Part shown: positions 9,476 to 25,514 of the stretch, piece after piece
Numbering within the stretch: the stretch's first letter is position 1
How the letters are laid out: each line of letters opens with the position of its first letter
Assembly: GCA_050951805.1 (NCBI GenBank)
Contig: JBMNJT010000007.1
Span: forward strand, 12,521 to 76,520
Reading direction: 5' to 3'
DNA length: 64,000 nucleotides
Source: Bacillota bacterium
Lineage (GTDB): Bacteria > Bacillota > DTU025
Made by a program: the position numbers and the translations under genes
Notes under the pieces: model-generated
Seen by the model: only the letters and a program-made list of their open reading frames with translations
What the model was told of the DNA's origin: nothing
Databases searched by the model: none

Positions 9476-11567
9476 GTTCGCCCGGCATGTTTGTTGAGCC
9501 GATGGACTGAAAGAAGTCCTGTCACCTAACCAGCGGGAAGACAACCCCAAGGCAAGGGCGTCGCTGGTAACGGCGGGGTCTGAAGGAAGCTTTAAGGGGG
9601 AACACGGAACGTAGCGAAAGCGAACCGAAGTTGGCCTGTCAGGTGGGTAACCTTGCGAAGTATGGGAAAGCCCGAAAGCTGGATAACCTGGGGGGTTTTG
9701 ACGGACGGGTTCGTGTTCAGGCAGACAAACTTAACCGGGGAAGCCCTGCATCATCCAGATAGCTGGTAAGCCCAAACAAGCGGAGACGCAAGGATGGGAA
9801 TATGTGGTGTGGGGTGGCAGATGAGTCCGTAGTAGTTATGAACCCTCAGCCCATGAAAGCTGGCAACAGACCGGAGGATAAAACTGAGGGGACAGCGGCC
9901 GGGAGCTGCTGGGCTGCATAGGCCAAAAGCCTATGCAGTTGCGAAGGGACGAAGGCAAACCAAAGCGTGCAACCTAGTTACAGGCAAGCATGGGAGAGAG
10001 ATAACAGAGGCTGAAATGCCGATGGGAACGGGGGAGCCGGGGGCGACGAGTCTGCTGGTCCCTGCGCCCGCTCAGCAGAGTATCAAAGTTTCGCGGGGTA
10101 GATTGCCTTAGAGCTAGAGACGCCTCGCAGGCCTTGGGAAGAAACTGCAACCATGCAAGCTTGATGGCCAAGGAAGCACGGCGAGATGAAGGAGCTAATT
10201 GATGAAACACTACAGCTTGATCGATAAGGTTTACCGGATGGATAACCTTAGAGCTGCATACAGGGCCGTCAGGGCCAACAACGGGGCTCCCGGGATAGAC
10301 GGTGAGACCGTGGACGCCTTCGGCGAGAACCTGGAAGCCAGGCTGGCAGAGATTTATCAGGAGCTCAGATCAGGATCTTACGAACCAAGTCCGGTGCGGC
10401 GGGTAGAGATACCGAAGCCAGACGGAAGCAAAAGGCCTCTTGGCATACCCACCGTTGGCGACAGAGTAGTGCAGCAAGCGCTGCTCAATGTGGTTCAGCC
10501 AATCTTCGACCCCGAATTCCATCCATCGAGCTATGGGTACCGACCCGGGCGATCCTGTCATCAAGCAGTGGCAAAGGCAGAGAGGTTCATTAATCGCTAC
10601 GGTCTCAAGCACGTAGTGGACATGGACTTGTCAAAATGCTTTGACCGACTCGATCATGACCTGATCATTGAGTCTGTGAACCGAAAGGTCAGCGACGGAA
10701 GCATACTTAAGCTGATCCGGAAGTTCCTTGAAGCAGGAGTCATGAAAGACGGGGCCTGGGAGGAAACAACCATAGGCAGTCCGCAAGGCGGAGTAATATC
10801 GCCTCTTCTTGCCAATATCTATCTTGACTACTTTGATCAAAAGATGAAGTCAAAGGACATCAGGATAGTGAGGTACGCTGACGATATACTCATCTTTGCG
10901 CGGACAAGGCGACAGGCGGAAAAGTTCTTGGAGATAGCGTGCGAGATCCTTGAGGGCGAGTTAAAGCTCGTTGTGAACAGGGATAAAACGCACATAACCA
11001 GCGTCTATAAGGGAGTGCCCTACCTTGGGTTTGTCATATACCCTAAGGTAGTAAGCATACACCCCAAGAAGCTGGCGAAGTTCAAGGACGCCGTCCGCAA
11101 GCTGACTCCCCGCAATCATGGGATGAGTGTTGAGCAGATGGTGAAGCGACTGAACCGATTCCTTCGTGGATGGATCAACTACTTTCGAATTGCGAACTGC
11201 AAGACGATAGTAGCCAGCCTGATGGGGTGGATAAGGCGGCGTCTGAGGATGAAGCAGATGAGGGAGTGGAAGAGCTGGAGGGGCCTGCATAAAGCACTTC
11301 GAAGGCGAGGCTACTCAGGCGAATTCCTAAAGATATCCATGAGACGATGGAGGAACTCGGCAAGTCCTCTGGTCAACATGGCGCTTCCTCAGGCTTGGTT
11401 CAGTGAGATAGGACTGATTGACCTCACGAAGTATGAGGTCGGCGTCTTGCATCTCTTCTATGAAGCGAAGTGACTAAGGTTTGCCAGGAGCCGTGTACGG
11501 GGCCCGTACGCACGGTTCTGTGAGAGGGATGACGCCAGGCTGATTACCTGGCGCCACCCTACTCGAT
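9476..11567 (+). mobile_element. Group II intron, class C-like, full-length copy A (2092 nt)
   Basis: 5' GTTCGCCCGGCATG; DV GAGCCGTGTACGGGGCCCGTACGCACGGTTC; DVI ending CCCTACTCGAT. Boundaries are defined by identity with two other copies; inserted 3' of a hairpin. Confidence 0.95.
10202..11473 (+). CDS. ltrA: Group II intron reverse transcriptase/maturase, no endonuclease domain
   Basis: Motifs RPLGIPTVGDRVVQQA, SYGYRPGRS, GSPQGGVISPLLANIYL, RYADD, X domain RGWINYF; RBS AAGGAG. Confidence 0.95.
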   Translation: MKHYSLIDKVYRMDNLRAAYRAVRANNGAPGIDGETVDAFGENLEARLAEIYQELRSGSYEPSPVRRVEIPKPDGSKRPLGIPTVGDRVVQQALLNVVQPIFDPEFHPSSYGYRPGRSCHQAVAKAERFINRYGLKHVVDMDLSKCFDRLDHDLIIESVNRKVSDGSILKLIRKFLEAGVMKDGAWEETTIGSPQGGVISPLLANIYLDYFDQKMKSKDIRIVRYADDILIFARTRRQAEKFLEIACEILEGELKLVVNRDKTHITSVYKGVPYLGFVIYPKVVSIHPKKLAKFKDAVRKLTPRNHGMSVEQMVKRLNRFLRGWINYFRIANCKTIVASLMGWIRRRLRMKQMREWKSWRGLHKALRRRGYSGEFLKISMRRWRNSASPLVNMALPQAWFSEIGLIDLTKYEVGVLHLFYEAK

Positions 11568-11622: not shown

Positions 11623-13206
11623 CTAGAAATCGCGGCCCTCTCCCATAACGAGAGCCCTGTAGGCAACCTCTGTCTTTTCCTGATAGCTTCCACTGCGATC
11701 CAAGGCATATGCACGCCCCATCGCCGTTACCACTTCTACATTCATCCCTGACGGGATCTTTGCCTCAAGAATCTCTAGTAGATCAGCAGCACCCTGTGGC
11801 GGACTGCTTCGACCATCAAGGATCAGATGAAGCCAAGCCCGTCCAATTCCTTTTTCCGCTGCTGCTCTGAGCACTGCAATCCCCTCGTCCATATTCCCGT
11901 GAGAGCTCCGTTCCGACAGCATAGCTATTACATGAATATCGCCGCCATGGCTCCGCGCCGCTTCAAAGCCGTAATTGACTGCCTCATTCTCTTTGAGCCC
12001 TCCAGCGCCAACAGCCTGCGAAATCCGGAGTTCGTCTTGGGGAACAACCCGCCCGGCGCCGAGAGTTAGATGCCCGGTCTCCGAATTGCCTGACCTTCCC
12101 TTTGGCAAACCAACGGCCATCCCAGCCGCAGCCAGAGTCATATATGGACATTCCTTCCTCATTCTGCTCATACACGGCGTGTTGGCAACTGCAATCGGGT
12201 TGATGGTTGAATCATCTATGCCAACTCCCCATCCATCCAAAATAACCAATACCAGTCGATCATAAGTTCCCTCATGGACGGCGCGGCACTTGCCGGTCAT
12301 CTCCTCGGGCACAGGTACGCCCATCATGCTCAACAGCGTGGGCGCAACATCTGCAAGGGTGGCATCCTCCGCCGCCCTCAGTTGCACAGACGGCCCTCCG
12401 GTCGCCAACACCAAGCCGAACGGCACACGACTACATGTATGGCTAAGGTTGTGGCTCCCATCTTCATTCACAAACCTCTCGAGCAGCCCATGATCTGCAG
12501 TTACAGCAACTGCATAACCATGTTGAGCCGCAGCTAGGCATATGGTGCTGAGCGCTTGATCTACCGCTTCAGCACAGAGCACATTAGCATTCCAATCATC
12601 CAGATGCCCAATGATGTCCCCCGCCGCTAGGTTCACAAGGATGAAGTGCCTGCTATAACCACTGGCGTTCGCAGCAGCCATCGAGCGCTCAGCTTCGAGG
12701 GCAACTTCCACCGTGCTCGTAGCCGGTTTCGAGACAAATTCTGATGAGTGGGGACTTGGCACAGTAATCCACTCTTCATTGGCATACGGTGCAACGCGCC
12801 TGCCATTGAAAAAGAACGTAACATGCGCCGCCTTCTCCGACTCGGCAATCCGCGTCTGCGCCACGCCGGCCTGACTCAGCGCCTCACCCATGGTTCCTTC
12901 AGGACGAAGAGTCGGAAAGATTGTGGGCAACTCAGCAAATTTCTCATGATATTGCACCAACGGAACAACGCTCAGATCAGGCATGGGTTCCGTTTCGAAT
13001 TGATCAAATAGCGGGTCAGCTAAGGCCTCTGTGAGCTGTCGTTCACGGTCCCCACGCCTGCAACAAAAGAATAGAGAATCGCCATTCTTTATCTTGCCCA
13101 CAGGCTTGCCATCGACGACGCGAGTCAGTGGAGTCATCCAGTAATCCATTTCTCCCCGGCTGTAGCACTCTCTCAAAGCCTGCTGCAAAGAAGCTGTTGT
13201 CTGCAC
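11623..13206 (-). CDS. Circularly permuted 2,3-BPG-independent phosphoglycerate mutase (GpmI) homolog
   Basis: All iPGM motifs are present but the halves are swapped. C-half motifs (RGDRERQ, ESEKAAHVTFFFNG, DIIGH, TADHG, LADVAPT...EMTG) come before N-half motifs (ILDGWG, GNSETGH..GAGR, DGR, GRAYALDR). Confidence 0.9.
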   Translation of the reverse strand: MQTTASLQQALRECYSRGEMDYWMTPLTRVVDGKPVGKIKNGDSLFFCCRRGDRERQLTEALADPLFDQFETEPMPDLSVVPLVQYHEKFAELPTIFPTLRPEGTMGEALSQAGVAQTRIAESEKAAHVTFFFNGRRVAPYANEEWITVPSPHSSEFVSKPATSTVEVALEAERSMAAANASGYSRHFILVNLAAGDIIGHLDDWNANVLCAEAVDQALSTICLAAAQHGYAVAVTADHGLLERFVNEDGSHNLSHTCSRVPFGLVLATGGPSVQLRAAEDATLADVAPTLLSMMGVPVPEEMTGKCRAVHEGTYDRLVLVILDGWGVGIDDSTINPIAVANTPCMSRMRKECPYMTLAAAGMAVGLPKGRSGNSETGHLTLGAGRVVPQDELRISQAVGAGGLKENEAVNYGFEAARSHGGDIHVIAMLSERSSHGNMDEGIAVLRAAAEKGIGRAWLHLILDGRSSPPQGAADLLEILEAKIPSGMNVEVVTAMGRAYALDRSGSYQEKTEVAYRALVMGEGRDF

Positions 13207-13251
13207 TCCATGTCACTCCTGCACTTCGTTGTCTGCTCTAAGCAGCGAATG

Positions 13252-14316
13252 TTATTTGGGGAAAACCAAGCCGTTCTGGATAAACGCACGGGTGCGGTCG
13301 CCAGGCTCAAACCTCATTGAGGAATTCGTCTGGACCCTGAGAAGATCCTCGCCAATTCGAACCCGGTATTCGATGACATTTCCGAGGAATATCCTTACGT
13401 CCACTTCGCATTCGACCCCTTGTTCGGTCCCCAGGATGATATCCTCCGGCCTGATAGCGAGGATATAGTCTCCTTTGTTCACCGATGATCCGTCAAGATC
13501 AAACTCCGCCCCGCCACGAAGGCGAATGTCGATGCCTTTTTCAGTCTTGCCAGTCACACTGCAGGGAACGAAGTTCATAGTCCCTATGAAGTCGGCAACG
13601 AACTTGTCCTTCGGCGTTTCATATATGTCATGAGGCGCACCCTCCTGCACTACTTTGCCGGAGTTCATTACGGCAACCCGGTCTGACATGGCCATTGCCT
13701 CAACCTGGTCATGAGTAACATACAAAATGGATATTCCCGTCTTGCGCTGAATGTCTTTGAGCTCAAAGCGCATCTGCTCTCGCAGTTTCGCATCGAGATT
13801 GGAAAGAGGCTCATCAAGCAGCATAACCCTTGGGTCGGTAGAAAGCGCTCTCCCCAATGCAACGCGTTGCTGCTGTCCACCGGAGAGTTCCGATGGGAAC
13901 CTTCTTTCCAAGCCCTCGAGTTCAAGTAGGTCTAGCAAGTAAGCCATTTTAGCATTGATCTCTTCTTTTGGCCTTTTCGCCAGCCGAAGGGGGTAGGACA
14001 TGTTCTGTTCTACTGTCATATGCGGCCATACTGCGTAGTTTTGAAAGACCATTCCTATGCCCCGGCGCTCAGGCGGCACCATCACGTTTTTCTCCGGCGA
14101 AGTTACCAACTGACCGCTTATGTGTATCTCGCCCTCAGTGGGCTGCTCCAACCCTGAAATGCACCGGAGTGTTGTCGTCTTCCCGCATCCAGAGGGCCCC
14201 AGAAGCGAGAAGAACTCGTTCTCATGAACTGTAAAGCTCACATCGTGAACTGCTGTAAACGTCCCAAACCGCTTGACTAGGTTTGAAACCTTGATTCGTT
14301 CTTCCACCCTTGCCAC
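13252..14316 (-). CDS. ABC transporter ATP-binding subunit (PotA/FbpC-like, TOBE)
   Basis: GPSGCGKT, LSGGQQQRVA, LLDEPLSNLDAKLR, YVTHDQ. Confidence 0.95.
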   Translation of the reverse strand: MARVEERIKVSNLVKRFGTFTAVHDVSFTVHENEFFSLLGPSGCGKTTTLRCISGLEQPTEGEIHISGQLVTSPEKNVMVPPERRGIGMVFQNYAVWPHMTVEQNMSYPLRLAKRPKEEINAKMAYLLDLLELEGLERRFPSELSGGQQQRVALGRALSTDPRVMLLDEPLSNLDAKLREQMRFELKDIQRKTGISILYVTHDQVEAMAMSDRVAVMNSGKVVQEGAPHDIYETPKDKFVADFIGTMNFVPCSVTGKTEKGIDIRLRGGAEFDLDGSSVNKGDYILAIRPEDIILGTEQGVECEVDVRIFLGNVIEYRVRIGEDLLRVQTNSSMRFEPGDRTRAFIQNGLVFPK

Positions 14317-14329
14317 CTCCGCATACCGT

Positions 14330-16018
14330 TCACATACTGATTTCGCCTTTTGAAAGCTTCCGCACGATTGCGTTGCCAGCCAAGATCACAAGCAAAACAA
14401 TCGTAGACAACGCCGCAGCTATCTGGGTGTACCCGGCATCTTGCATGTTGTATATAACCACTCCTATAGTCTCAGCGCCCTGTGACCACAGAAGAACGGA
14501 CATGGTCAACTCCCTCAGAGCTGGCATGAAAACCAGGATCCACCCGGCTATGAGGCCAGGTTTGATCAACGGCATCACAATGTCTTTCATTGTCTGAGTC
14601 CATCCTGCCCCGGAAACCCGCGCAGCTTCCTCAAGCGAAACATGCACCTGCTGAAGAGTCGCGTTGGTAGTGCGAATCGAAAATGGCATGTACCGCACTA
14701 GGTAAGCCGCAAGTATGACCCATATCGTGCCGTAAAGCATCACAGGGGGTCGCGACCAGGCCAAGATCATGGCAATTGCCACCATAGTACATGGCACCGC
14801 GTAAGGTATGGTTCCTACGAAGTCGAGAGTCTTGGCTCCCTTGATCTTGGCCCGCACAGACATGTAAGATACCAAAGCTCCAACGGCCATGGTGATTGTG
14901 GCAGCAGAAACCGCCAGGAACAAGCTGTTCCTAAATGCCCTGGATGCCATGGGCAGATCCAAAATGTATTTGTAATGACTCGTAGTCATATTCGCAAGGT
15001 TCAGCGGTGCGCCCCAGTATTTGAGGAATGAAGTCAAAAGCATCGATATCAGCGGAACTACCCCTGCAAAAAGCGATACGAGGACAACGATGATAAGGAC
15101 AGGGATCCGCCAACCGCCTAGACTCATTGTTTGAGGCCTGACGCTCTTGCCCGCAATCACTGTATACCTGCTTTGCCCACGCTCCAGTCTCCTCTCGAGA
15201 ATAAGGGGAATCCCAGATGTAATCGCCAGGATAACCGCCATCGCAGTCGCCAATGGCATATCCGGTATGGACAGAGCGGAGTATATCTTCGTAGTCAACA
15301 CGAAGAACCGGGCCCTGAACCCAAGAAGAGCCGGAATTCCGAAGTTGGATATGCAGCCGACAAACGCAAGCAATGCGCTAGCTGTGATCGCAGGCGTGAT
15401 CAGTGGCATAGTTACATCTATGAGAGTCCTAAACGGACCTGCGCCAGACATCCTCGCGGCTTCTTCTAAGCTCGTATCGATCTTGCCAAGCGCCCCACTC
15501 ACAGTTATGAAAACGACGGGAAACTGATATACAGCGAGCACTAATACTACCCCGGCAGCACTGTATATGTTCCACGGAGCAGATGTCGCGCCCGTAAGCG
15601 TCATATATAGCTTAGATACGTAACCTACTGGTCCAAAAAGCTGAGCCCACGCCATCGCACCAATGAACGGCGGTATGCCATACGGCAGCAGGAGCAGCAT
15701 CCTCAACCACGACTTGCCCGGGATATCTGTTCGGACAACGAGCATAGCCAGGATAGTGCCTACAGCCACACATATCAGAGTAGACAGAGACGAAACCCAG
15801 ATGGAATTCCAAAAGGCTTTAAGATTGGCTGACTCAGAGAAGATTTTCACATAGTTTTCGAAAGTAAAACCCGCCTCAGAACTGAAACTCTTAACTACAA
15901 CAAGGGACAGAGGGTACACGATGACGACCAGGAAGAACAGCCCAATGATGGCCATGAACACATAGCGTACATCCATAGATCGTCGTCCAACTGCTGTGTC
16001 CGTATTCAATCGAATCAT
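14330..16018 (-). CDS. ABC transporter permease (FbpB/AfuB-like, two fused domains)
   Basis: Two EAA motifs (SLEEAARMSGA, SLEEAARVSGA); RBS AGGAGGGGG upstream of the start, which is approximate. Confidence 0.92.
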   Translation of the reverse strand: MIRLNTDTAVGRRSMDVRYVFMAIIGLFFLVVIVYPLSLVVVKSFSSEAGFTFENYVKIFSESANLKAFWNSIWVSSLSTLICVAVGTILAMLVVRTDIPGKSWLRMLLLLPYGIPPFIGAMAWAQLFGPVGYVSKLYMTLTGATSAPWNIYSAAGVVLVLAVYQFPVVFITVSGALGKIDTSLEEAARMSGAGPFRTLIDVTMPLITPAITASALLAFVGCISNFGIPALLGFRARFFVLTTKIYSALSIPDMPLATAMAVILAITSGIPLILERRLERGQSRYTVIAGKSVRPQTMSLGGWRIPVLIIVVLVSLFAGVVPLISMLLTSFLKYWGAPLNLANMTTSHYKYILDLPMASRAFRNSLFLAVSAATITMAVGALVSYMSVRAKIKGAKTLDFVGTIPYAVPCTMVAIAMILAWSRPPVMLYGTIWVILAAYLVRYMPFSIRTTNATLQQVHVSLEEAARVSGAGWTQTMKDIVMPLIKPGLIAGWILVFMPALRELTMSVLLWSQGAETIGVVIYNMQDAGYTQIAAALSTIVLLVILAGNAIVRKLSKGEISM

Positions 16019-16035
16019 CCCCCTCCTACAATGGG

Positions 16036-16070
16036 CTGGGGTACACTGCATACAGTAATGTACTCCCCAG
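16036..16070 (-). other. Stem-loop immediately 3' of the tandem introns
   Basis: CTGGGG(A)GTACA...TGTACCCCAG inverted repeat. Confidence 0.6.
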
Positions 16071-16935
16071 ATCGAGTAGGGTGGCGCCAGGTAATCAGCC
16101 TGGCGTCATCCCTCTCACAGAACCGTGCGTACGGGCCCCGTACACGGCTCCTGGCAAACCTTAGTCACTTCGCTTCATAGAAGAGATGCAAGACGCCGAC
16201 CTCATACTTCGTGAGGTCAATTCATCTCGCCGTGCTTCCTTGGCCATCAAGCTTGCATGGTTGCAGTTTCTTCCCAAGGCCTGCGAGGCGTCTCTAGCTC
16301 TAAGGCAATCTACCCCGCGAAACTTTGATACTCTGCTGAGCGGGCGCAGGGACCAGCAGACTCGTCGCCCCCGGCTCCCCCGTTCCCATCGGCATTTCAG
16401 CCTCTGTTATCTCTCTCCCATGCTTGCCTGTAACTAGGTTGCACGCTTTGGTTTGCCTTCGTCCCTTCGCAACTGCATAGGCTTTTGGCCTATGCAGCCC
16501 AGCAGCTCCCGGCCGCTGTCCCCTCAGTTTTATCCTCCGGTCTGTTGCCAGCTTTCATGGGCTGAGGGTTCATAACTACTACGGACTCATCTGCCACCCC
16601 ACACCACATATTCCCATCCTTGCGTCTCCGCTTGTTTGGGCTTACCAGCTATCTGGATGATGCAGGGCTTCCCCGGTTAAGTTTGTCTGCCTGAACACGA
16701 ACCCGTCCGTCAAAACCCCCCAGGTTATCCAGCTTTCGGGCTTTCCCATACTTCGCAAGGTTACCCACCTGACAGGCCAACTTCGGTTCGCTTTCGCTAC
16801 GTTCCGTGTTCCCCCTTAAAGCTTCCTTCAGACCCCGCCGTTACCAGCGACGCCCTTGCCTTGGGGTTGTCTTCCCGCTGGTTAGGTGACAGGACTTCTT
16901 TCAGTCCATCGGCTCAACAAACATGCCGGGCGAAC
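16071..16935 (-). mobile_element. ORF-less group II intron copy C (865 nt, internal 1227-nt deletion)
   Basis: Same 5' and 3' ends as the full copies. The junction GAGGTCAAT/TCATCTCGCC near 16221 removes the RBS, start codon and most of the RT ORF. Confidence 0.93.
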
Positions 16936-19027
16936 ATCGAGTAGGGTGGCGCCAGGTAATCAGCCTGGCGTCATCCCTCTCACAGAACCGTGCGTACGGG
17001 CCCCGTACACGGCTCCTGGCAAACCTTAGTCACTTCGCTTCATAGAAGAGATGCAAGACGCCGACCTCATACTTCGTGAGGTCAATCAGTCCTATCTCAC
17101 TGAACCAAGCCTGAGGAAGCGCCATGTTGACCAGAGGACTTGCCGAGTTCCTCCATCGTCTCATGGATATCTTCAGGAATTCGCCTGAGTAGCCTCGCCT
17201 TCGAAGTGCTTTATGCAGGCCCCTCCAGCTCTTCCACTCCCTCATCTGCTTCATCCTCAGACGCCGCCTTATCCACCCCATCAGGCTGGCTACTATCGTC
17301 TTGCAGTTCGCAATTCGAAAGTAGTTGATCCATCCACGAAGGAATCGGTTCAGTCGCTTCACCATCTGCTCAACACTCATCCCATGATTGCGGGGAGTCA
17401 GCTTGCGGACGGCGTCCTTGAACTTCGCCAGCTTCTTGGGGTGTATGCTTACTACCTTAGGGTATATGACAAACCCAAGGTAGGGCACTCCCTTATAGAC
17501 GCTGGTTATGTGCGTTTTATCCCTGTTCACAACGAGCTTTAACTCGCCCTCAAGGATCTCGCACGCTATCTCCAAGAACTTTTCCGCCTGTCGCCTTGTC
17601 CGCGCAAAGATGAGTATATCGTCAGCGTACCTCACTATCCTGATGTCCTTTGACTTCATCTTTTGATCAAAGTAGTCAAGATAGATGTTGGCAAGAAGAG
17701 GCGATATTACTCCGCCTTGCGGACTGCCTATGGTTGTTTCCTCCCAGGCCCCGTCTTTCATGACTCCTGCTTCAAGGAACTTCCGGATCAGCTTAAGTAT
17801 GCTTCCGTCGCTGACCTTTCGGTTCACAGACTCAATGATCAGGTCATGATCGAGTCGGTCAAAGCATTTTGACAAGTCCATGTCCACTACGTGCTTGAGA
17901 CCGTAGCGATTAATGAACCTCTCTGCCTTTGCCACTGCTTGATGACAGGATCGCCCGGGTCGGTACCCATAGCTCGATGGATGGAATTCGGGGTCGAAGA
18001 TTGGCTGAACCACATTGAGCAGCGCTTGCTGCACTACTCTGTCGCCAACGGTGGGTATGCCAAGAGGCCTTTTGCTTCCGTCTGGCTTCGGTATCTCTAC
18101 CCGCCGCACCGGACTTGGTTCGTAAGATCCTGATCTGAGCTCCTGATAAATCTCTGCCAGCCTGGCTTCCAGGTTCTCGCCGAAGGCGTCCACGGTCTCA
18201 CCGTCTATCCCGGGAGCCCCGTTGTTGGCCCTTACGGCCCTGTATGCAGCTCTAAGGTTATCCATCCGGTAAACCTTATCGATCAAGCTGTAGTGTTTCA
18301 TCAATTAGCTCCTTCATCTCGCCGTGCTTCCTTGGCCATCAAGCTTGCATGGTTGCAGTTTCTTCCCAAGGCTTGCGAGGCGTCTCTAGCTCTAAGGCAA
18401 TCTACCCCGCGAAACTTTGATACTCTGCTGAGCGGGCGCAGGGACCAGCAGACTCGTCGCCCCCGGCTCCCCCGTTCCCATCGGCATTTCAGCCTCTGTT
18501 ATCTCTCTCCCATGCTTGCCTGTAACTAGGTTGCACGCTTTGGTTTGCCTTCGTCCCTTCGCAACTGCATAGGCTTTTGGCCAATGCAGCCCAGCAGCTC
18601 CCGGCCGCTGTCCCCTCAGTTTTATCCTCCGGTCTGTTGCCAGCTTTCATGGGCTGAGGGTTCATAACTACTACGGACTCATCTGCCACCCCACACCACA
18701 TATTCCCATCCTTGCGTCTCCGCTTGTTTGGGCTTACCAGCTATCTGGATGATGCAGGGCTTCCCCGGTTAAGTTTGTCTGCCTGAACACGAACCCGTCC
18801 GTCAAAACCCCCCAGGTTATCCAGCTTTCGGGCTTTCCCATACTTCGCAAGGTTACCCACCTGACAGGCCAACTTCGGTTCGCTTTCGCTACGTTCCGTG
18901 TTCCCCCTTAAAGCTTCCTTCAGACCCCGCCGTTACCAGCGACGCCCTTGCCTTGGGGTTGTCTTCCCGCTGGTTAGGTGACAGGACTTCTTTCAGTCCA
19001 TCGGCTCAACAAACATGCCGGGCGAAC
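16936..19027 (-). mobile_element. Group II intron full-length copy B (2092 nt)
   Basis: Reverse complement of 9476-11567 with a few SNPs; its 3' end abuts copy C with no spacer. Confidence 0.95.
17030..18301 (-). CDS. ltrA: Group II intron reverse transcriptase/maturase
   Basis: Protein identical to that of 10202-11473 in the ORF track. Confidence 0.95.
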   Translation of the reverse strand: MKHYSLIDKVYRMDNLRAAYRAVRANNGAPGIDGETVDAFGENLEARLAEIYQELRSGSYEPSPVRRVEIPKPDGSKRPLGIPTVGDRVVQQALLNVVQPIFDPEFHPSSYGYRPGRSCHQAVAKAERFINRYGLKHVVDMDLSKCFDRLDHDLIIESVNRKVSDGSILKLIRKFLEAGVMKDGAWEETTIGSPQGGVISPLLANIYLDYFDQKMKSKDIRIVRYADDILIFARTRRQAEKFLEIACEILEGELKLVVNRDKTHITSVYKGVPYLGFVIYPKVVSIHPKKLAKFKDAVRKLTPRNHGMSVEQMVKRLNRFLRGWINYFRIANCKTIVASLMGWIRRRLRMKQMREWKSWRGLHKALRRRGYSGEFLKISMRRWRNSASPLVNMALPQAWFSEIGLIDLTKYEVGVLHLFYEAK

Positions 19028-19058
19028 AAAGAGGCGGTGCGGCCTCAGTCGCACCGCC
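19028..19058 (-). terminator. Intercistronic stem-loop after the SBP gene; intron target
   Basis: On the minus strand, GGCGGTGCG-ACTGAGGC-CGCACCGCC-TCTTT is directly followed by intron GTTCG. Confidence 0.8.
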
Positions 19059-19088
19059 GCGGTCAGGGTGTTTATTCACGACACGCAC

Positions 19089-20069
19089 CTATTTGAACAT
19101 TATTTTCTCGAAGGTCTCCCTTATAGCAGACGCGTTATCAGCCGCCCATTGGAATGGAACGGGCATCATCTTTATTTTATCTGCCGTAGGCATTCCCTTC
19201 GGAGGAGCTACATCTGGCCTCACTGGTATCACACCATCATTGACCAATAGCTCCTGCCCCTTCTTCGAGAGAGTGAAGTCTACAAATGCCTTGGAGGCCT
19301 CAAGATTCTTTGACCCAGCAACTATCGCTACCGGACTCGGAATTGAGACCGCACCGTCGGCAGGCCAGACAAAATCAACCGGCGCTCCCGACTTCTGAAG
19401 GTCATAAATCATGTAGTCCAGCACCATGCAGGCTGCAAATTCGCCAGCAGCCAAACCTCTCGAAACATCTGAATTGCCCCTGAGAACCTGTATTCCAGAT
19501 TTTCGCGCTTTCTCGTACCAGCTCCAACCTTTGTCTCTTTGAACAAAAGCCGCTGCAACAGTGAAGTTGGAACCAGAATAGAGGGGGTCCGCCATTGCGG
19601 CGCGAGAACCAAACCCGAGCAAGTCATCCCAAGTCTTTGGCTCGGATCCTTTCTTGACTAAATTGGTGTTTATTCCAATTACCATGTTAATCATGCGAGC
19701 GCCTGTAAAGTATCCGTCAGGGTCCTTGATTGCTGAAGGAATGCGGGCGGCTTCCGGCGATTTGTACGGATATAGCAAGCCCTTGTCCTTGAATGCGTAG
19801 TAGCTTGCAGCATCAGCCAGCCATATTACGTCGGCCCTTATACCGCCAGCATCAGCCTCAGCCCATATCTTGTTGACCACATCAGTGCTTCCAGCTCGAA
19901 AAACTTCCACCTTGATCCCTTTATTCGCCTTCATGAATTGGTCTGCGAAGTTCGTAGCGAGTTCCAGTGGAACAGACGTGTAAAGCAGGACCTTCGACTC
20001 AGCAAATACACCAGTAGAGATCGACAGCAACAATACCAAAGCCAGGACTATTACACTGCCCCTTTTCAT
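19089..20069 (-). CDS. ABC transporter substrate-binding protein (AfuA/FbpA/PotD-like)
   Basis: Signal peptide MKRGSVIVLALVLLLSISTGVFA with no lipobox Cys; motifs LYTS, ADVIW, KDPDGYF, ADPLYSGS, FVDFTLSKKGQ. Confidence 0.9.
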   Translation of the reverse strand: MKRGSVIVLALVLLLSISTGVFAESKVLLYTSVPLELATNFADQFMKANKGIKVEVFRAGSTDVVNKIWAEADAGGIRADVIWLADAASYYAFKDKGLLYPYKSPEAARIPSAIKDPDGYFTGARMINMVIGINTNLVKKGSEPKTWDDLLGFGSRAAMADPLYSGSNFTVAAAFVQRDKGWSWYEKARKSGIQVLRGNSDVSRGLAAGEFAACMVLDYMIYDLQKSGAPVDFVWPADGAVSIPSPVAIVAGSKNLEASKAFVDFTLSKKGQELLVNDGVIPVRPDVAPPKGMPTADKIKMMPVPFQWAADNASAIRETFEKIMFK

Positions 20070-20146
20070 GTTCAACCCGCCTCTCTTTTGATTGGTGGTA
20101 TACTTGGTTAACCCCCACTCGCGCAGGGGCACGACCAGCGAATCAA

Positions 20147-21478
20147 CTAGTCATGCAACTTGATCTTTCGAGCCACCTTTAGCACTTCTTCTTCTAGATC
20201 GATAGAAGCATCTGTAGGAATAGGCTCATTATCGATATACACGATCTCAAGCCCCTTACGTACCGCCCATTCAGTCACAACATCTACTGCAGCAGCCTTG
20301 AGTTCAGAGACGATTGCATCAGGCTTCAACGTTTCAAAACGCGCCAGGTCCTCTCGGAGCAGCGGCCTGTTCGAAAGGTGCGAGCTAACTCCAACAACCT
20401 CACATCCATAAGTCTTCTCAAGATAAGCAGATATGGCATCTGTCATCACCGCAGGCGTAGTTAGAGTGAGGACTATTCTCTTACCGGTAATATCGCCAAT
20501 CGGGCGAGGTCTGAAAATGGTCTTCACCACCGTGCATCCGGCGTTTATCTCGTGAATGGCTTCTACCATCTCGTCAATCTTAGCTTGGTCAACCATTGGA
20601 GACTCACACATTGTAAGAACAATTAAGTCGGAGGTAAGAATACGATAAGGCCCGAGGTAAGAGCGCATATACTCTACGGGTTGGTGAGCACCGATGACTA
20701 GTATGCGCGCATCCGTGTGCACCGAAGGTATAGATGAACCGCTGCCTTCGAATATGACTATGTCGGCGTCGATCTTTTCCGACAGTTCAGCACCTCTGTC
20801 CACATTTGAGACAAAAGTCTGTCCCGACATCCCGCCTCCACACCGTCGACAGCCGATGGTTGTAACCCTTGAGGTAAGCAGATCCTCGAAATGGTCAGAC
20901 GATGCATGGCGCCCTTGTTTGCTAACGGACAACAAATACTCGGGCGTGATCTCAATCTCAGACGCGCTGAGCAGCTCAGGCTCTGCAGGACCACCCCGCC
21001 CCATGGTAACCACGACGGGGTTATACTTCTTCGCCAGCGTCCGCGCGACAAAACCGCCGACAGCAGTCTTTCCGATTCTCTTCCCGGTTCCTATGACCGA
21101 GATACTCGGCCTGCTTACGCGCGCCGCCTCTACAGGAGGAGTGAACTGGAAATCCGCGCCCCGGTAAGCGACACCCTTTGCAAGCACATTGCTGGCAATC
21201 TCAAACCGCTCCTTGTAGCCAACTACAGGCTCGTCGCTAAGATCAACAACCTCATCCGGATCGTATTTGTCTATAGCGGCTGCGATAGCATGGAGATAGT
21301 CATCCTCATGCACTACAGGAACTCCAAGTCTGGCAAGATCAGAATCAGAACCAATCTTCTCAGTGCCGCCAATGAAAACGGCAGCCAATATGTCGAGCTC
21401 CCCCTTGAGCACCTCTATGGCATCATGAGTTACCGCAGGGTAATGCTCACCGTCTGTAAGTACAATAGCTTTCTTCAT
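20147..21478 (-). CDS. cpgS: Cyclic 2,3-diphosphoglycerate synthetase homolog
   Basis: DGEHYP, FIGGTEK, DLSDEPV, GADF, GTGKRIGKTAV, MGRGGPAEPE, HASSDHFED, TIGCRRCGGG, EGSG and ELKAAAVD are the motif series of archaeal cDPGS. Confidence 0.9.
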   Translation of the reverse strand: MKKAIVLTDGEHYPAVTHDAIEVLKGELDILAAVFIGGTEKIGSDSDLARLGVPVVHEDDYLHAIAAAIDKYDPDEVVDLSDEPVVGYKERFEIASNVLAKGVAYRGADFQFTPPVEAARVSRPSISVIGTGKRIGKTAVGGFVARTLAKKYNPVVVTMGRGGPAEPELLSASEIEITPEYLLSVSKQGRHASSDHFEDLLTSRVTTIGCRRCGGGMSGQTFVSNVDRGAELSEKIDADIVIFEGSGSSIPSVHTDARILVIGAHQPVEYMRSYLGPYRILTSDLIVLTMCESPMVDQAKIDEMVEAIHEINAGCTVVKTIFRPRPIGDITGKRIVLTLTTPAVMTDAISAYLEKTYGCEVVGVSSHLSNRPLLREDLARFETLKPDAIVSELKAAAVDVVTEWAVRKGLEIVYIDNEPIPTDASIDLEEEVLKVARKIKLHD

Positions 21479-21499
21479 AATGCTCCACCACCGTTGTTG

Positions 21500-22288
21500 C
21501 TAGAATGAAGATGCATTGACAACCATCTCCTTTACCTTGCGCATGTTGGTGAGATCTACATATGTCTTGCACATATCCCCACGTATCAGAGACTTTGCAT
21601 ATAGAATTGGTGTGGGCGATTCCGCGTAAGAAATGCGCTCATTGAGCATTGCCAATGCGCCAACTGATTGTCCAAGAAGGTCAGCTTCTAGGCTACCGAG
21701 GAAGACTGGCCGGAAGGTCTCGTCGCTCCTTTTCAGGACAATACCGTATTCATCACGGAGTATCCGAAATAGCGATCTTGATAGATCGGCCTCTTCAATG
21801 CCGATAGCCACATCGGGGGAGATGAAAGTCGTCTCAATTAGCATTGGAATGCCATCGACTTTTTTCAAGCGTCTGATCCTTAACACTTCCGAGTCGTCTT
21901 CAATGGCCAAATACGCACTGACAAGATTGGAAGCCGCAACCCGGTCTATAGTAAGAACCTCCGCCCAGAATTCGTGTCCAAGAGCTCGAATTCTGGACGC
22001 AAGACGCATTTCGTCGGTGATATAGGTCGTCTCCTTGTACTCCATGGGCCATTGCGGAACTGAAACAAAAGTTCCCTTCCCTTGTACAGAATAGAGCAGG
22101 CCCTCATGAACTAATTCCGAAATGGCCTGCTTAGCTGTTGTAGTGCTTATGTCATAGGTTCCGCACAACTCACGTATTGAGGGAATGCGCGTCTCGGGCT
22201 CCCATTCGCCCGAGACGATCTTCTCCTTGAGCTCTTCTTTAAGCTGATAATACAGGGGAATAAAACTGTCCTTCTTAAGCATTGGCAC
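21500..22288 (-). CDS. GntR family (HutC/UTRA) transcriptional regulator
   Basis: PLYYQL...IPSIRELC...QGKGTFV winged HTH plus a UTRA-like C-terminus; GGAGG precedes GTG 22288/ATG 22282. Confidence 0.92.
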   Translation of the reverse strand: MPMLKKDSFIPLYYQLKEELKEKIVSGEWEPETRIPSIRELCGTYDISTTTAKQAISELVHEGLLYSVQGKGTFVSVPQWPMEYKETTYITDEMRLASRIRALGHEFWAEVLTIDRVAASNLVSAYLAIEDDSEVLRIRRLKKVDGIPMLIETTFISPDVAIGIEEADLSRSLFRILRDEYGIVLKRSDETFRPVFLGSLEADLLGQSVGALAMLNERISYAESPTPILYAKSLIRGDMCKTYVDLTNMRKVKEMVVNASSF

Positions 22289-22314
22289 GAAAGCCTCCAT
22301 ACCGTAATGGACCT

Positions 22315-22335
22315 TGTAGCATATTGCCAGCTACA
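22315..22335. promoter_or_regulatory. Candidate operator palindrome for the GntR regulator
   Basis: TGTAGC-N9-GCTACA just upstream of the regulator. Confidence 0.35.
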
Positions 22336-22370
22336 TTAAGTGTGTGTGTTAACGTGTTATCGCTTACTGT

Positions 22371-22398
22371 ATTTCTACATTTCCTAAGCGATTCCTCT
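22371..22398 (-). promoter_or_regulatory. Sigma-H-like promoter for the cpgS operon
   Basis: Minus strand AGAGGAATC-GCTTAGGAAAT-GTAGAAAT has the same layout as the spoVG site in this window. Confidence 0.4.
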
Positions 22399-23542: not shown

Positions 23543-23628
23543 TGGTGCCGGAGGCGGGATTCGAACCCGCACGTCCTTGCGGACAGAGGATTTTAAGTCC
23601 CCTGCGTCTGCCTTTCCGCCACTCCGGC
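23543..23628 (-). tRNA. tRNA-Leu(TAA)
   Basis: GCCGGAGTGGCGGAA...GGGGACTTAAAATCCTC, long variable arm, GGTTCGAATCC...GGCACCA. Confidence 0.95.
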
Positions 23629-23768: not shown

Positions 23769-25514
23769 TCACAACTTGCTTCCGCAGCGGCCTAACCCGA
23801 TGCAGGCCGCCATACCATCGAGTATTCCAGCTGCGCTCACCACAACCTCAGCCGCGCCCGCAAGATCCATCACCTCAAGGATTATCGCCGCCCCGGCAGG
23901 CATCACCCTGGCCCGCTCCGGCTGGATCATCCCTTTCACCTGCATTCTTTCAGCACACGCCAACGAGCACAAGCCAAGAAATGCCTCCTCCAACTCTTCC
24001 CTGTGCAAAGCGTAGCCATGGACCATGTCCGGATCTAGCGTTTCCAACTCCAAACCGATTGAAGCAAGTGTAACAGCGGATCCGCCTACCACGACTATCG
24101 TCGATAGAATACCGCCATCCTCCCCGTCCATCGGTAAGCCATGCACAAACTCCCGCGCCCCCTCCAGACAGAACCGAATATGCCCACGCATCTGCTCAAT
24201 CTCCCCCCGCGATGGAGGGTCTGAACAAAGGAACTCGTCTGTCAGGCTCACTGCCCCGAGCGGAAGGCTTATAGATCTTACCTCACCCGTGCAAGAATCG
24301 AGCCTCGTGAACTCAGTGCTCATGCCCCCGGAATCCACTATCAGCAAGGATCGCGGGTCGATCGCGACGGAAGGCGCAACACTTCCGACCGCAGCTGCTG
24401 AACCTGCGCCAGCCACAACGCCCAGAAACGACAATTCGGCCTCAAACTCCGGTGACACAACTTCGAGCCTGACTTCGCATGCCTCTTTAACTTGACGGAT
24501 CAAGGCTTCGGAGTCCTCCGCCGCCCTCGCCGCCGCTGTAGCTGTCACCCATACCCTATCAGCTCCCAGGCTGCGACTGAGCCCCATAAAGTCGCTAATG
24601 GCTTCGACAGTAGCTGCCCGGCCTGCCTCAGACAACCTTCCAGTTTCCCCAAGCCCATGCCCGAGCCCGGTAATCCGGGCATCCATGCACACCCCGAAAA
24701 CCCTTGGAACCCCAACAACGCCAGAATCTCCATATGCTTTCATAATCTTTGAGCAGACGGAGCCGTCAGAACCTGCCGACCAATTCGGCCGCGACACTAC
24801 ATCGGCCACAAGCACCTTAGTCGAATTGGAACCGGCATTTATCGCCGCCACCCGCGCCGGAACACATCTCCCCCCGTCACACTCAAGCCATACCCCGGCT
24901 TGGCGCAGCCGACTCACGGCCATGTCCCCAACAGGATTGTTATTGCCCGCCATGTAATCCGCAACATGCATGTGGAGGCATTTCACCCCTGCAAAGCGCG
25001 CCACCCCGCCTATGCCTGTATCTCTGAGAACCCGAAGCATTTTTGGAGCCTCTTTCTCCAGAAACTCCAGATCATCTTCGCCTATGAGCGCCATCCTTTG
25101 CGCAGCATACCTCGTATTGGCACACTCGTGCGCCTTCCGGAAATCTTCATCCCGCTCTATCAGCTCTGCCGCCTCGCCTATCATGCCCTCACTTTCCAAC
25201 ACCGATATGGCTTCGCGTACGTGGGGGCATGTAAGCCAGTAGACCGTAGGAAAGGGCTTAGGTTTCACAACCCGCCCCAGCCCGCCATTGTGCCATATGA
25301 CGGGGTAGGTCGACACAACCTGTGGTTGCCCGTAAGAACACCGCCGGGGAATTCGAGCAATGCTGCCGATAAGATCTCGGCCGAGCTGCGCGGCAACGAC
25401 CGCTCGATCTATGGCCCTAGGCTTTACGAAGTCTTGATGCTCCTCACGCATTTCGGCAGTTCTCCCATGGCCGCCTTCTATCGACTTCCCCAGTTTCTTG
25501 CTCAACAAACACAC
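23769..25514 (-). CDS. DUF501 domain fused to a Ppx/GppA phosphatase domain
   Basis: N-part: QLGR...C.YG.P.V, PFPTVYWLTCP...LESEG, GIGG...VKCLHMHVA. C-part: GSNS, TGLG, EAELSFLGV, DSGGMSTE, PLGAVSLT. Start uncertain (possibly about 25451). Confidence 0.82.
   Translation of the reverse strand: MCLLSKKLGKSIEGGHGRTAEMREEHQDFVKPRAIDRAVVAAQLGRDLIGSIARIPRRCSYGQPQVVSTYPVIWHNGGLGRVVKPKPFPTVYWLTCPHVREAISVLESEGMIGEAAELIERDEDFRKAHECANTRYAAQRMALIGEDDLEFLEKEAPKMLRVLRDTGIGGVARFAGVKCLHMHVADYMAGNNNPVGDMAVSRLRQAGVWLECDGGRCVPARVAAINAGSNSTKVLVADVVSRPNWSAGSDGSVCSKIMKAYGDSGVVGVPRVFGVCMDARITGLGHGLGETGRLSEAGRAATVEAISDFMGLSRSLGADRVWVTATAAARAAEDSEALIRQVKEACEVRLEVVSPEFEAELSFLGVVAGAGSAAAVGSVAPSVAIDPRSLLIVDSGGMSTEFTRLDSCTGEVRSISLPLGAVSLTDEFLCSDPPSRGEIEQMRGHIRFCLEGAREFVHGLPMDGEDGGILSTIVVVGGSAVTLASIGLELETLDPDMVHGYALHREELEEAFLGLCSLACAERMQVKGMIQPERARVMPAGAAIILEVMDLAGAAEVVVSAAGILDGMAACIGLGRCGSKL

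Follow-up and report, generated by a model that had tools for sequence, protein, structure and literature searches.

A bacterial operon that links a cyclic 2,3-diphosphoglycerate synthetase homolog to an Afu-type importer and a permuted phosphoglycerate mutase is a candidate system for uptake and use of cDPG

Biosynthesis of cyclic 2,3-diphosphoglycerate (cDPG) in Methanothermus fervidus and the Methanobacteriales pairs 2-phosphoglycerate kinase (2PGK) with cDPG synthetase (cDPGS), and the compound is described in PMC10690619 as exclusive to hyperthermophilic archaeal methanogens. We analyzed a 64,000-nt stretch of DNA (the window) from a Bacillota bacterium (lineage Bacteria; Bacillota; DTU025; GenBank assembly GCA_050951805.1, contig JBMNJT010000007.1, positions 12,521 to 76,520 of the forward strand) that carries a cDPGS gene within a six-gene operon. 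The synthetase is homologous to the archaeal enzyme over its full length and keeps the published active-site residues, but its host is a bacterium and its gene company is an importer, a repressor and a circularly permuted independent phosphoglycerate mutase (piPGM), whereas the partner kinase of the archaeal pathway was not found in the eight genomes that bear the operon. Other described systems resemble parts of this locus. The substrate-binding protein (SBP) of the importer falls in the same branch as those of AfuABC from Actinobacillus pleuropneumoniae (PDB 4r72-4r75) and P5PA; the architecture of AfuABC (one SBP, a fused double permease and a TOBE ATPase) and a phosphate-contacting Ser are shared, but the sugar-recognizing H205, D206 and E229 of AfuA are M, I and I here. 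The nearest models for SBP, permease, ATPase and regulator are those of the PhnSTUV and PhnS2T2U2 importers of 2-aminoethylphosphonate and of PhnR/PhnF, yet the scores lie far below the curated cut-offs and phosphonate-degrading genes are not adjacent. Canonical GpmI (Geobacillus stearothermophilus, PDB 1ejj) has both domains, the Ser nucleophile and the metal ligands in common with piPGM, in which the halves are swapped and Asp154, Phe260 and His125 are replaced family-wide by Ser, Arg and Asn. As for operon logic, the catabolic operons for compatible solutes such as ectoine, with GntR/MocR-type regulators, which likewise combine an SBP importer and a regulator with few enzymes, differ in the solute, in the enzymes and in having no proposed reversed synthetase.

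Both the protein families and the logic of the operon are thus known, but the combination was not found in the literature searched. Nor did that search, which covered neither older subscription papers nor supplements, return any bacterial genes for cDPG uptake or degradation, in line with the preliminary description of this locus, whose author knew of no such bacterial system. With an importer, a ligand-sensing repressor and two enzymes behind one operator, and no kinase found, cDPG uptake and use is the simplest reading; to our mind the chances are about even that the operon serves substrate-induced import and catabolism of cDPG released by methanogens. The operon genes and the site upstream of them are, in window coordinates:

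22346-22359, minus strand: candidate operator TAACACGTTAACAC 5′ of the regulator gene (conservation in relatives)
21500-22300, minus strand: GntR + UTRA regulator, HutC/PhnR/PhnF-like (Pfam PF00392, 3.5e-18; PF07702, 2.9e-30)
20147-21478, minus strand: cDPGS homolog, 443 aa (full-length match to PDB 8oru/8ork)
19089-20132, minus strand: SBP of the ABC importer (Pfam SBP_bac_8/6/1/11)
14330-16051, minus strand: fused double permease, 573 aa (Pfam BPD_transp_1, two stretches)
13252-14316, minus strand: ABC ATPase with TOBE domain, 354 aa (Pfam ABC_tran, TOBE_2)
11623-13206, minus strand: homolog of circularly permuted independent phosphoglycerate mutase (iPGM), i.e., piPGM, 527 aa (two model stretches in swapped order)

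Open reading frame (ORF) prediction and Pfam and NCBIfam scans bore out the six co-directional minus-strand genes of the preliminary description at these positions, within 11623-22359 if the upstream motif is included. Intergenic gaps measure 13 to 80 bp, with the exception of the SBP-permease gap, which holds a 2957-bp insert. Conservation of this arrangement was assessed in 401 sampled genomes of the phylum, eight of which (four genera, three families), including this one, encode cDPGS. In the seven others, all six genes are likewise present and identically ordered, with identities as low as 47%; in one of them (G084), the regulator match is partial (residues 7-140) and ∼67 additional residues are inserted in frame into piPGM (L019, G084:C78:27085-28818), between positions 269 and 276. 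Further loci came from a metagenome scan with an alignment of piPGMs (80 loci) and from a scan of a genome collection with a single cDPGS protein (5 loci). In the metagenome set, cDPGS lies beside piPGM in 10 loci, 9 of which also encode the importer. Three distant loci (L056, L093 and L119; 41 to 54% identity) have the order SBP-permease-ATPase-cDPGS-piPGM and other regulators (GntR-FCD in L119, different or none in the others), and two of them, L056 and L093, additionally encode a phosphate transporter of the PHO4 type and a TIM-barrel protein with weak similarity to a phosphodiesterase. Retention of the linkage despite rearrangement at such identities speaks for importer, cDPGS and piPGM forming a functional unit. 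The preliminary description had proposed looking for co-occurrence of the gene set elsewhere and for 2PGK and a canonical gpmI in the rest of the genome. The outcome was favorable throughout: the set recurs in all cDPGS-bearing genomes of the phylum sample and in the three distant metagenome lineages, and the results for the two other genes are given below.

Judged by its sequence, the product of 20147-21478 is a genuine cDPGS homolog. Its residues 2-435 align with residues 4-447 of the M. fervidus cDPGS chain in PDB 8oru/8ork (E 5.3e-139), a second structure, PDB 9sxb, is matched at E 9.8e-133, and identity to the characterized M. fervidus enzyme is ∼55%, with the N-terminal domain, which is unique to this enzyme, included in the match. 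The protein had no match in the Pfam and NCBIfam copies scanned; PF27272 is its precomputed Pfam tag in the protein database. Section 8 of PMC10690619 names substrate, Mg and nucleotide residues of the M. fervidus enzyme. Read by eye in the alignment to the PDB chain, the Walker A loop residues K145, R146, K149 and T150, the Mg ligand D208, the partner-subunit residues E45/K46 and the nucleotide contacts E305, T353, E404 and K406 are all identical here, while P335 of the same source could not be placed by manual count. The designation as a full-length cDPG synthetase homolog is therefore upheld by the extent of the match and by the active site. At E ≤ 1e-10 the database contains over 7,700 members of the family, among which the nearest relatives (57 to 87% identical) come from Bacillota/Clostridia metagenome genomes and the archaeal ones are ∼50% identical. 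In trees of 45 and 26 of the 119 homologs listed (near-duplicates of ≥80% identity dropped, or a hand-picked subset), the importer-linked sequences of Limnochordia type cluster together (SH-aLRT 86 to 92, unstarred), and the distant importer-linked ones (L093/L119 and L056) are placed elsewhere, among sequences listed without gene context. Neither a single nor a multiple origin of importer-linked cDPGS can be claimed from these trees. The enzyme is probably used in the direction opposite to that of biosynthesis in M. fervidus and the Methanobacteriales.

The kinase that the preliminary description had noted as absent from the window was sought genome-wide. 2PGK (NF003259) was not found in any of the eight operon-bearing genomes (completeness 84 to 98%; 97% for this genome), the sole signal of the model being a 19.6-bit noise match in G084, and tblastn returned no match in the operon-type loci examined. 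Positive controls worked: in one Omnitrophota and one Actinomycetota locus the same model detected a 2PGK homolog (∼299 bits) directly beside cDPGS. One Actinomycetota order with small genomes (80 sampled) encodes cDPGS in 75 and 2PGK in 74, with both in 73, mostly within ∼0.5 kb of each other on one contig. In one locus of that phylum (L011; the genomes of the order are G402 and G603-G681), the pair lies near a heliorhodopsin gene. Among 201 Omnitrophota genomes sampled, a single one encodes cDPGS, too few for a comparison group. The Omnitrophota biosynthetic cluster also contains apgM, a phosphoglycerate mutase gene. Bacterial cDPGS genes thus come in two arrangements, accompanied either by the kinase or by an importer with no kinase. 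These counts also suggest that cDPG synthesis is common in the Actinomycetota order, contrary to the exclusivity stated in PMC10690619.

The importer had been described as Afu-type, and the SBP indeed falls in the organophosphate-binding Afu/P5PA branch. The closest matches of known structure are P5PA, which binds pyridoxal-5-phosphate (6wce, 1.4e-23), and AfuA, which binds sugar phosphates (4r72, 5e-20); the ferric-ion binding proteins FbpA/HitA, whose iron ligands are Tyr-Tyr-His-Glu, are weaker matches (E 1e-12 and worse). The protein probably starts at M22 (20069), and the signal peptide that comes next is of type I, looks cleavable and has no lipobox cysteine, which fits a two-membrane (Limnochordia-like) envelope better than a lipoprotein anchor. 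As reported in PMC4546632, H205, D206 and E229 of AfuA coordinate the sugar and were used by its authors as a family motif, and Ser37 and Thr150 hold the phosphate. In our alignment Ser37 is kept (RAGST motif) and Thr150 is replaced by Ser (SGS motif; aligned position uncertain by one residue), while the sugar triad reads M/I/I in this SBP and M/I, I/V/A and I/L at the respective positions in 13 relatives. The ligand is therefore not expected to be a hexose phosphate, and the protein looks like a binder of another phosphate-bearing ligand. The nearest NCBIfam models all remained under cut-off (PhnS2, 126 of 393 bits; PhnU2, 200 of 593; PhnT2, 358 of 458), and no phosphonate-cleaving genes were detected in the operon by the Pfam and NCBIfam scans. 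An importer of a second, PhnS2-like type adjoins the operon in G334 (L041, G334:C137) and in L048.

The regulator has an N-terminal GntR helix-turn-helix and a C-terminal UTRA domain, the order of the HutC subfamily, and scored below the cut-off of every NCBIfam equivalog, the nearest being PhnR/PhnF. Operons for uptake and catabolism usually stand under a UTRA-type GntR regulator of this subfamily. Comparison with relatives places the true start probably at 22282, behind a GGAGG. The motif TAACACGTTAACAC lies ∼60 to 75 bp upstream of the regulator start and contains a GT-TA-AC core, which we take to be typical of HutC-type operators. Versions of it, read by eye, precede the first operon gene in 11 of 11 related loci, including L049, where the regulator gene now stands last in the operon and the motif lies ahead of cDPGS instead. 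We infer that the regulator binds this site. At zero or one mismatch the motif occurs only here in the 2.75-Mb genome, and the regulon is thus probably the operon alone. A general promoter/terminator scan was discarded as evidence because its counts did not exceed those of shuffled sequences (8 versus 9.3 and 8 versus 10.0), and only the hairpin of the SBP gene was used, since the intron follows it directly.

The two halves of the operon mutase match the canonical iPGM model in swapped order, as the preliminary description had proposed: residues 5-306 correspond to canonical positions of about 212-505 and residues 318-525 to 6-211, and the summed TIGR01307 score (391 bits) exceeds the cut-off of 330.65 only as two pieces. 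An AlphaFold2 model (mean pLDDT 94.5, pTM 0.89) retrieved iPGMs as all of its top 22 Foldseek matches in the PDB, each over ∼255 to 317 aligned columns, i.e., about half of the chain per structure, as expected for a circular permutation; the matches give no pointer to the substrate. Aligned to 1ejj, piPGM keeps Ser62, which we take to be the nucleophile, D12, D403, H407, D444, H445 and H462, presumably the metal ligands, and most substrate arginines. Ser62 and the metal ligands are invariant in the 117 family members compared (the family has at least that many). The substrate-pocket D154 and the N-F-R-x-D-R motif of canonical GpmI are absent, with D154 replaced by S in 115 of the 117 permuted sequences, F260 by R in all 117, and H125 by N, again family-wide. 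A canonical gpmI (682 bits; motifs DGRD, NFRGDR and HSH) is encoded at another locus of the genome, as it is in four of five other genomes checked, and the operon piPGM is hence an extra paralog. No literature was found that joins the terms "circularly permuted" and "independent phosphoglycerate mutase."

As a partner in the operon, piPGM is conserved, but it is not specific to it, since it belongs to a large family found mostly in other phospho-metabolite clusters. Among 130 ORFs neighboring piPGM in 35 metagenome loci, one or two HAD phosphatases occur in 20 loci, an apgM-like protein in 13, a PRK/uridine-kinase-like kinase in 10, an RpiR regulator in 5 and a glycerate kinase in 2; a PhnU2-like permease is present in 26 of the 80 metagenome loci. 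A recurring cluster (L059-L121) unites one or two HAD phosphatases, piPGM, the apgM-like protein, the PRK/uridine-kinase-like kinase and RpiR, often with a PhnU2-like importer, and looks like an uncharacterized phospho-metabolite pathway. In general, then, the family goes together with small acids that are imported or phosphorylated, and the piPGM step of the mechanism proposed below is accordingly stated less firmly. A xylose-isomerase-like TIM-barrel protein accompanies piPGM and the same importer type in loci with cDPGS (L056:5013-5846 and L093:3955-4842) and in loci without it (L060:493-1320 and L072:5729-6556). In L093 and L060 the protein shows weak similarity to the cobamide-remodeling phosphodiesterase CbiR, and the best weak matches of the L056 protein are sugar epimerases; that this protein might be a hydrolytic ring opener is an idea only.

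The mechanism that we propose would begin with capture of cDPG by the secreted SBP and its uptake by the ABC importer. The GntR/UTRA regulator would repress at TAACACGTTAACAC until the substrate or 2,3-bisphosphoglycerate (2,3-BPG) binds the UTRA domain. The cDPGS homolog, running in reverse, would open the ring (cDPG + ADP + Pi -> 2,3-BPG + ATP), and piPGM would remove or shift a phosphate of 2,3-BPG, giving 2- or 3-phosphoglycerate and Pi and pulling ring opening forward. Housekeeping enzymes would then take the phosphoglycerate into lower glycolysis, for a gain per molecule of carbon, two phosphates and possibly one ATP. Section 24 of PMC1224877 reports that the M. fervidus enzyme is reversible and makes ATP from cDPG, ADP and Pi, and also refers to a cDPG hydrolase activity bound to the membrane in Methanothermobacter. 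The uptake-and-use reading of the preliminary description is partly supported, by conservation, by the failure to find 2PGK, by the importer branch and by the gpmI paralog, but thermodynamics speak against an easy reversal.

Several observations weigh against this reading, the energetics among them. Section 24 of PMC1224877 states that the Methanothermobacter enzyme appears irreversible, and the estimate in PMC12136491 makes the synthetase direction ∼10 kJ/mol exergonic. By our own arithmetic from that estimate, reversal requires [cDPG][ADP][Pi]/([2,3-BPG][ATP]) to exceed ∼57 M, which at an ADP/ATP ratio of 0.2 and 10 mM Pi corresponds to a cDPG:2,3-BPG ratio near 3 × 10^4. Reversal would thus require an importer that concentrates cDPG and a piPGM that holds the product very low. 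Genomic context raises a further objection. L060 and L072 have the same SBP type beside piPGM without cDPGS, with 59 of 66 invariant residues in common, and G125 (L042, G125:C11), from a genus group of three carriers, combines a second, PhnS2-like importer type with GntR/UTRA and piPGM, again without cDPGS. From this SBP/piPGM core it follows that the imported compound may be 2,3-BPG or a phosphoglycerate, and cDPGS could be an add-on, working in either direction, to a core handling linear (bis)phosphoglycerate. Most piPGM genes, moreover, lie in other clusters of uncharacterized function. Whole bacterial orders evidently use cDPGS plus 2PGK for synthesis, as far as gene content tells, so that use of cDPG as an own solute is not far-fetched. 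Finally, assembled sequences from four RNA libraries span most of the operon (19 to 29 of its 30 bins), which weakly suggests expression, contigs being no proof of transcription, strand or level. Contig depth is higher over the SBP gene, and we draw no conclusion from this.

The main rival explanation is salvage, in which imported 2,3-BPG or cDPG would supply an own protective or phosphate-storage solute through forward ring closure by cDPGS, with piPGM clearing surplus precursor. It would profit from the favored direction of the reaction as estimated in PMC12136491, from the retention of every synthetase residue named in section 8 of PMC10690619, from the many bacteria with cDPGS and 2PGK, which make own use of cDPG plausible, and from the SBP type of L060 and L072, which would suit a linear (bis)phosphoglycerate as the imported compound and cDPGS as an accessory. 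Nevertheless, a solute needed at tens of millimolar is hard to supply from an environmental trace compound, and the conserved piPGM would be left without a clear role, canonical gpmI being present. We know of no large source of 2,3-BPG in sludge, and genes for solute synthesis are usually stress-regulated, not placed with an importer under a UTRA-type repressor. On balance we hold salvage to be unlikely. A different organophosphate (a phosphorylated three-carbon acid, a phosphonate or a cyclic pyrophosphate) might instead be imported, cDPGS having drifted to it. This appears rather improbable to us: the nearest NCBIfam models of transporter and regulator are phosphonate-type (PhnS2/U2/T2 and PhnR/PhnF) and piPGM relatives occupy varied phospho-metabolite clusters, but all those models scored below cut-off, by a wide margin for the transporter (PhnS2, 126 versus 393 bits), phosphonate-cleaving genes were not found in the operon, and a protein ∼55% identical to a characterized cDPGS keeps every 2,3-DPG and ATP contact published in PMC10690619.

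Synthesis might also proceed independently of the kinase, if piPGM made 2,3-BPG by serine phosphate transfer to 3-phosphoglycerate from a donor such as 1,3-bisphosphoglycerate or a second phosphoglycerate and cDPGS cyclized the product; the importer would then merely recapture leaked solute. An apparently intact cDPGS in eight genomes in which 2PGK was not found, an extra Arg (F260 to R) and a lost Asp154 that could make room for a second phosphate, and the mutase gene apgM in the Omnitrophota biosynthetic cluster all accord with this scheme. It is nonetheless very unlikely in our estimate, since piPGM occurs without cDPGS in 70 of the 80 metagenome loci and in four genomes of the phylum sample, its active-site changes are family-wide and not specific to cDPGS clusters, and the importer is the most constant partner and co-regulated with the enzymes. 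To our knowledge, no such activity is known for iPGM-type enzymes. That the genes have no functional link at all, being chance neighbors or recently transferred unrelated pieces, can hardly be credited. Mobile introns in and beside the operon and the sporadic occurrence of cDPGS (8 of 401 genomes in the phylum sample, 1 of 201 in Omnitrophota) would suit such an origin, but it is contradicted by the conserved order across four genera and three families at identities down to 47%, by the rearranged core in three distant lineages, by the one shared candidate operator ahead of the operon, and by the intergenic position of the introns and their exact removal in RNA-library contigs.

The preliminary description had noted an intron insertion in the operon; a group II intron does occupy the SBP-permease gap, but the insert consists of two tandem elements, not one. 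The features of this gap are:

19033-19058, minus strand: GC-rich hairpin and T-tract directly 3′ of the SBP gene (terminator-like site)
16936-19027, minus strand: full group II intron, 2092 bp, with a reverse transcriptase/maturase ORF at 17030-18304 (TIGR04416, 428 bits; Rfam RF02001, RF00029)
16071-16935, minus strand: ORF-less 865-bp intron derivative, in tandem (blastn; Rfam RF02001, RF00029)

Both elements are intergenic and lie in operon orientation. By blastn, the 865-bp derivative consists of intron segments 1-715 and 1942-2092. Boundaries were taken from the genome copies and from an exact joint, 16070 to 19028, in contigs of two RNA libraries, so that the insert is either spliced out or missing in some strains; the operon of the closest relative has no insert. 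Contig joints that go back 865 nt were considered as intron circles and dismissed, being explained by the tandem copies. The 5′ end of the intron (19027) lies directly behind the SBP-gene hairpin, a position that presumably resembles insertion by terminator-targeting (class C-like) introns. Three full 2092-bp copies and several 865-bp ORF-less derivatives were counted in the genome, with copies on C2, C3 and C4, and one of the full copies (9476-11567, plus strand) starts ∼55 bp past the last stop codon of the operon, on the opposite strand. Upstream of the operon are a tRNA gene (23546-23628, minus strand) and a DUF501-Ppx/GppA fusion gene (23769-25514, minus strand). The latter was rejected as a member of the system because tblastn gave no matches beside the operon in relatives.

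Among named sequences, RpoB of this uncultured organism is nearest to Limnochordia (67 to 71% identity). Two full-length rpoB genes stand in tandem (G000:C8:456250-459657 and 460131-463535), both well over the TIGR02013 cut-off, and could represent a real duplication or an artefact of assembly or binning. The stretch itself is present in 20 of the 24 runs listed, from 12 studies, which are bioreactor, sludge, landfill, activated-sludge and digester metagenomes.

If cDPG is indeed the substrate, the operon would for the first time open the turnover of a major methanogen metabolite in digesters and landfills to genetic study, and its arrangement makes this cross-domain metabolite link directly testable. 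It would also offer a candidate high-affinity binding protein or sensor for cDPG, a compound under development as an industrial extremolyte, together with a natural test of cDPG synthetase as an ATP-yielding ring opener and a pointer to the function of the large and unnoticed piPGM family. A bolder proposition, which we regard as tentative and more doubtful than uptake and catabolism as such, is that bacteria living among methanogens use cDPG as food and recover the energy of its cyclic pyrophosphate bond as ATP, through an acquired cDPGS running in reverse and removal of 2,3-BPG by piPGM, which would make the reversal possible. Were it true, a new food chain would link the two domains, substrate-level phosphorylation would take a new form that starts from an imported compound, and the piPGM family would gain its first function.

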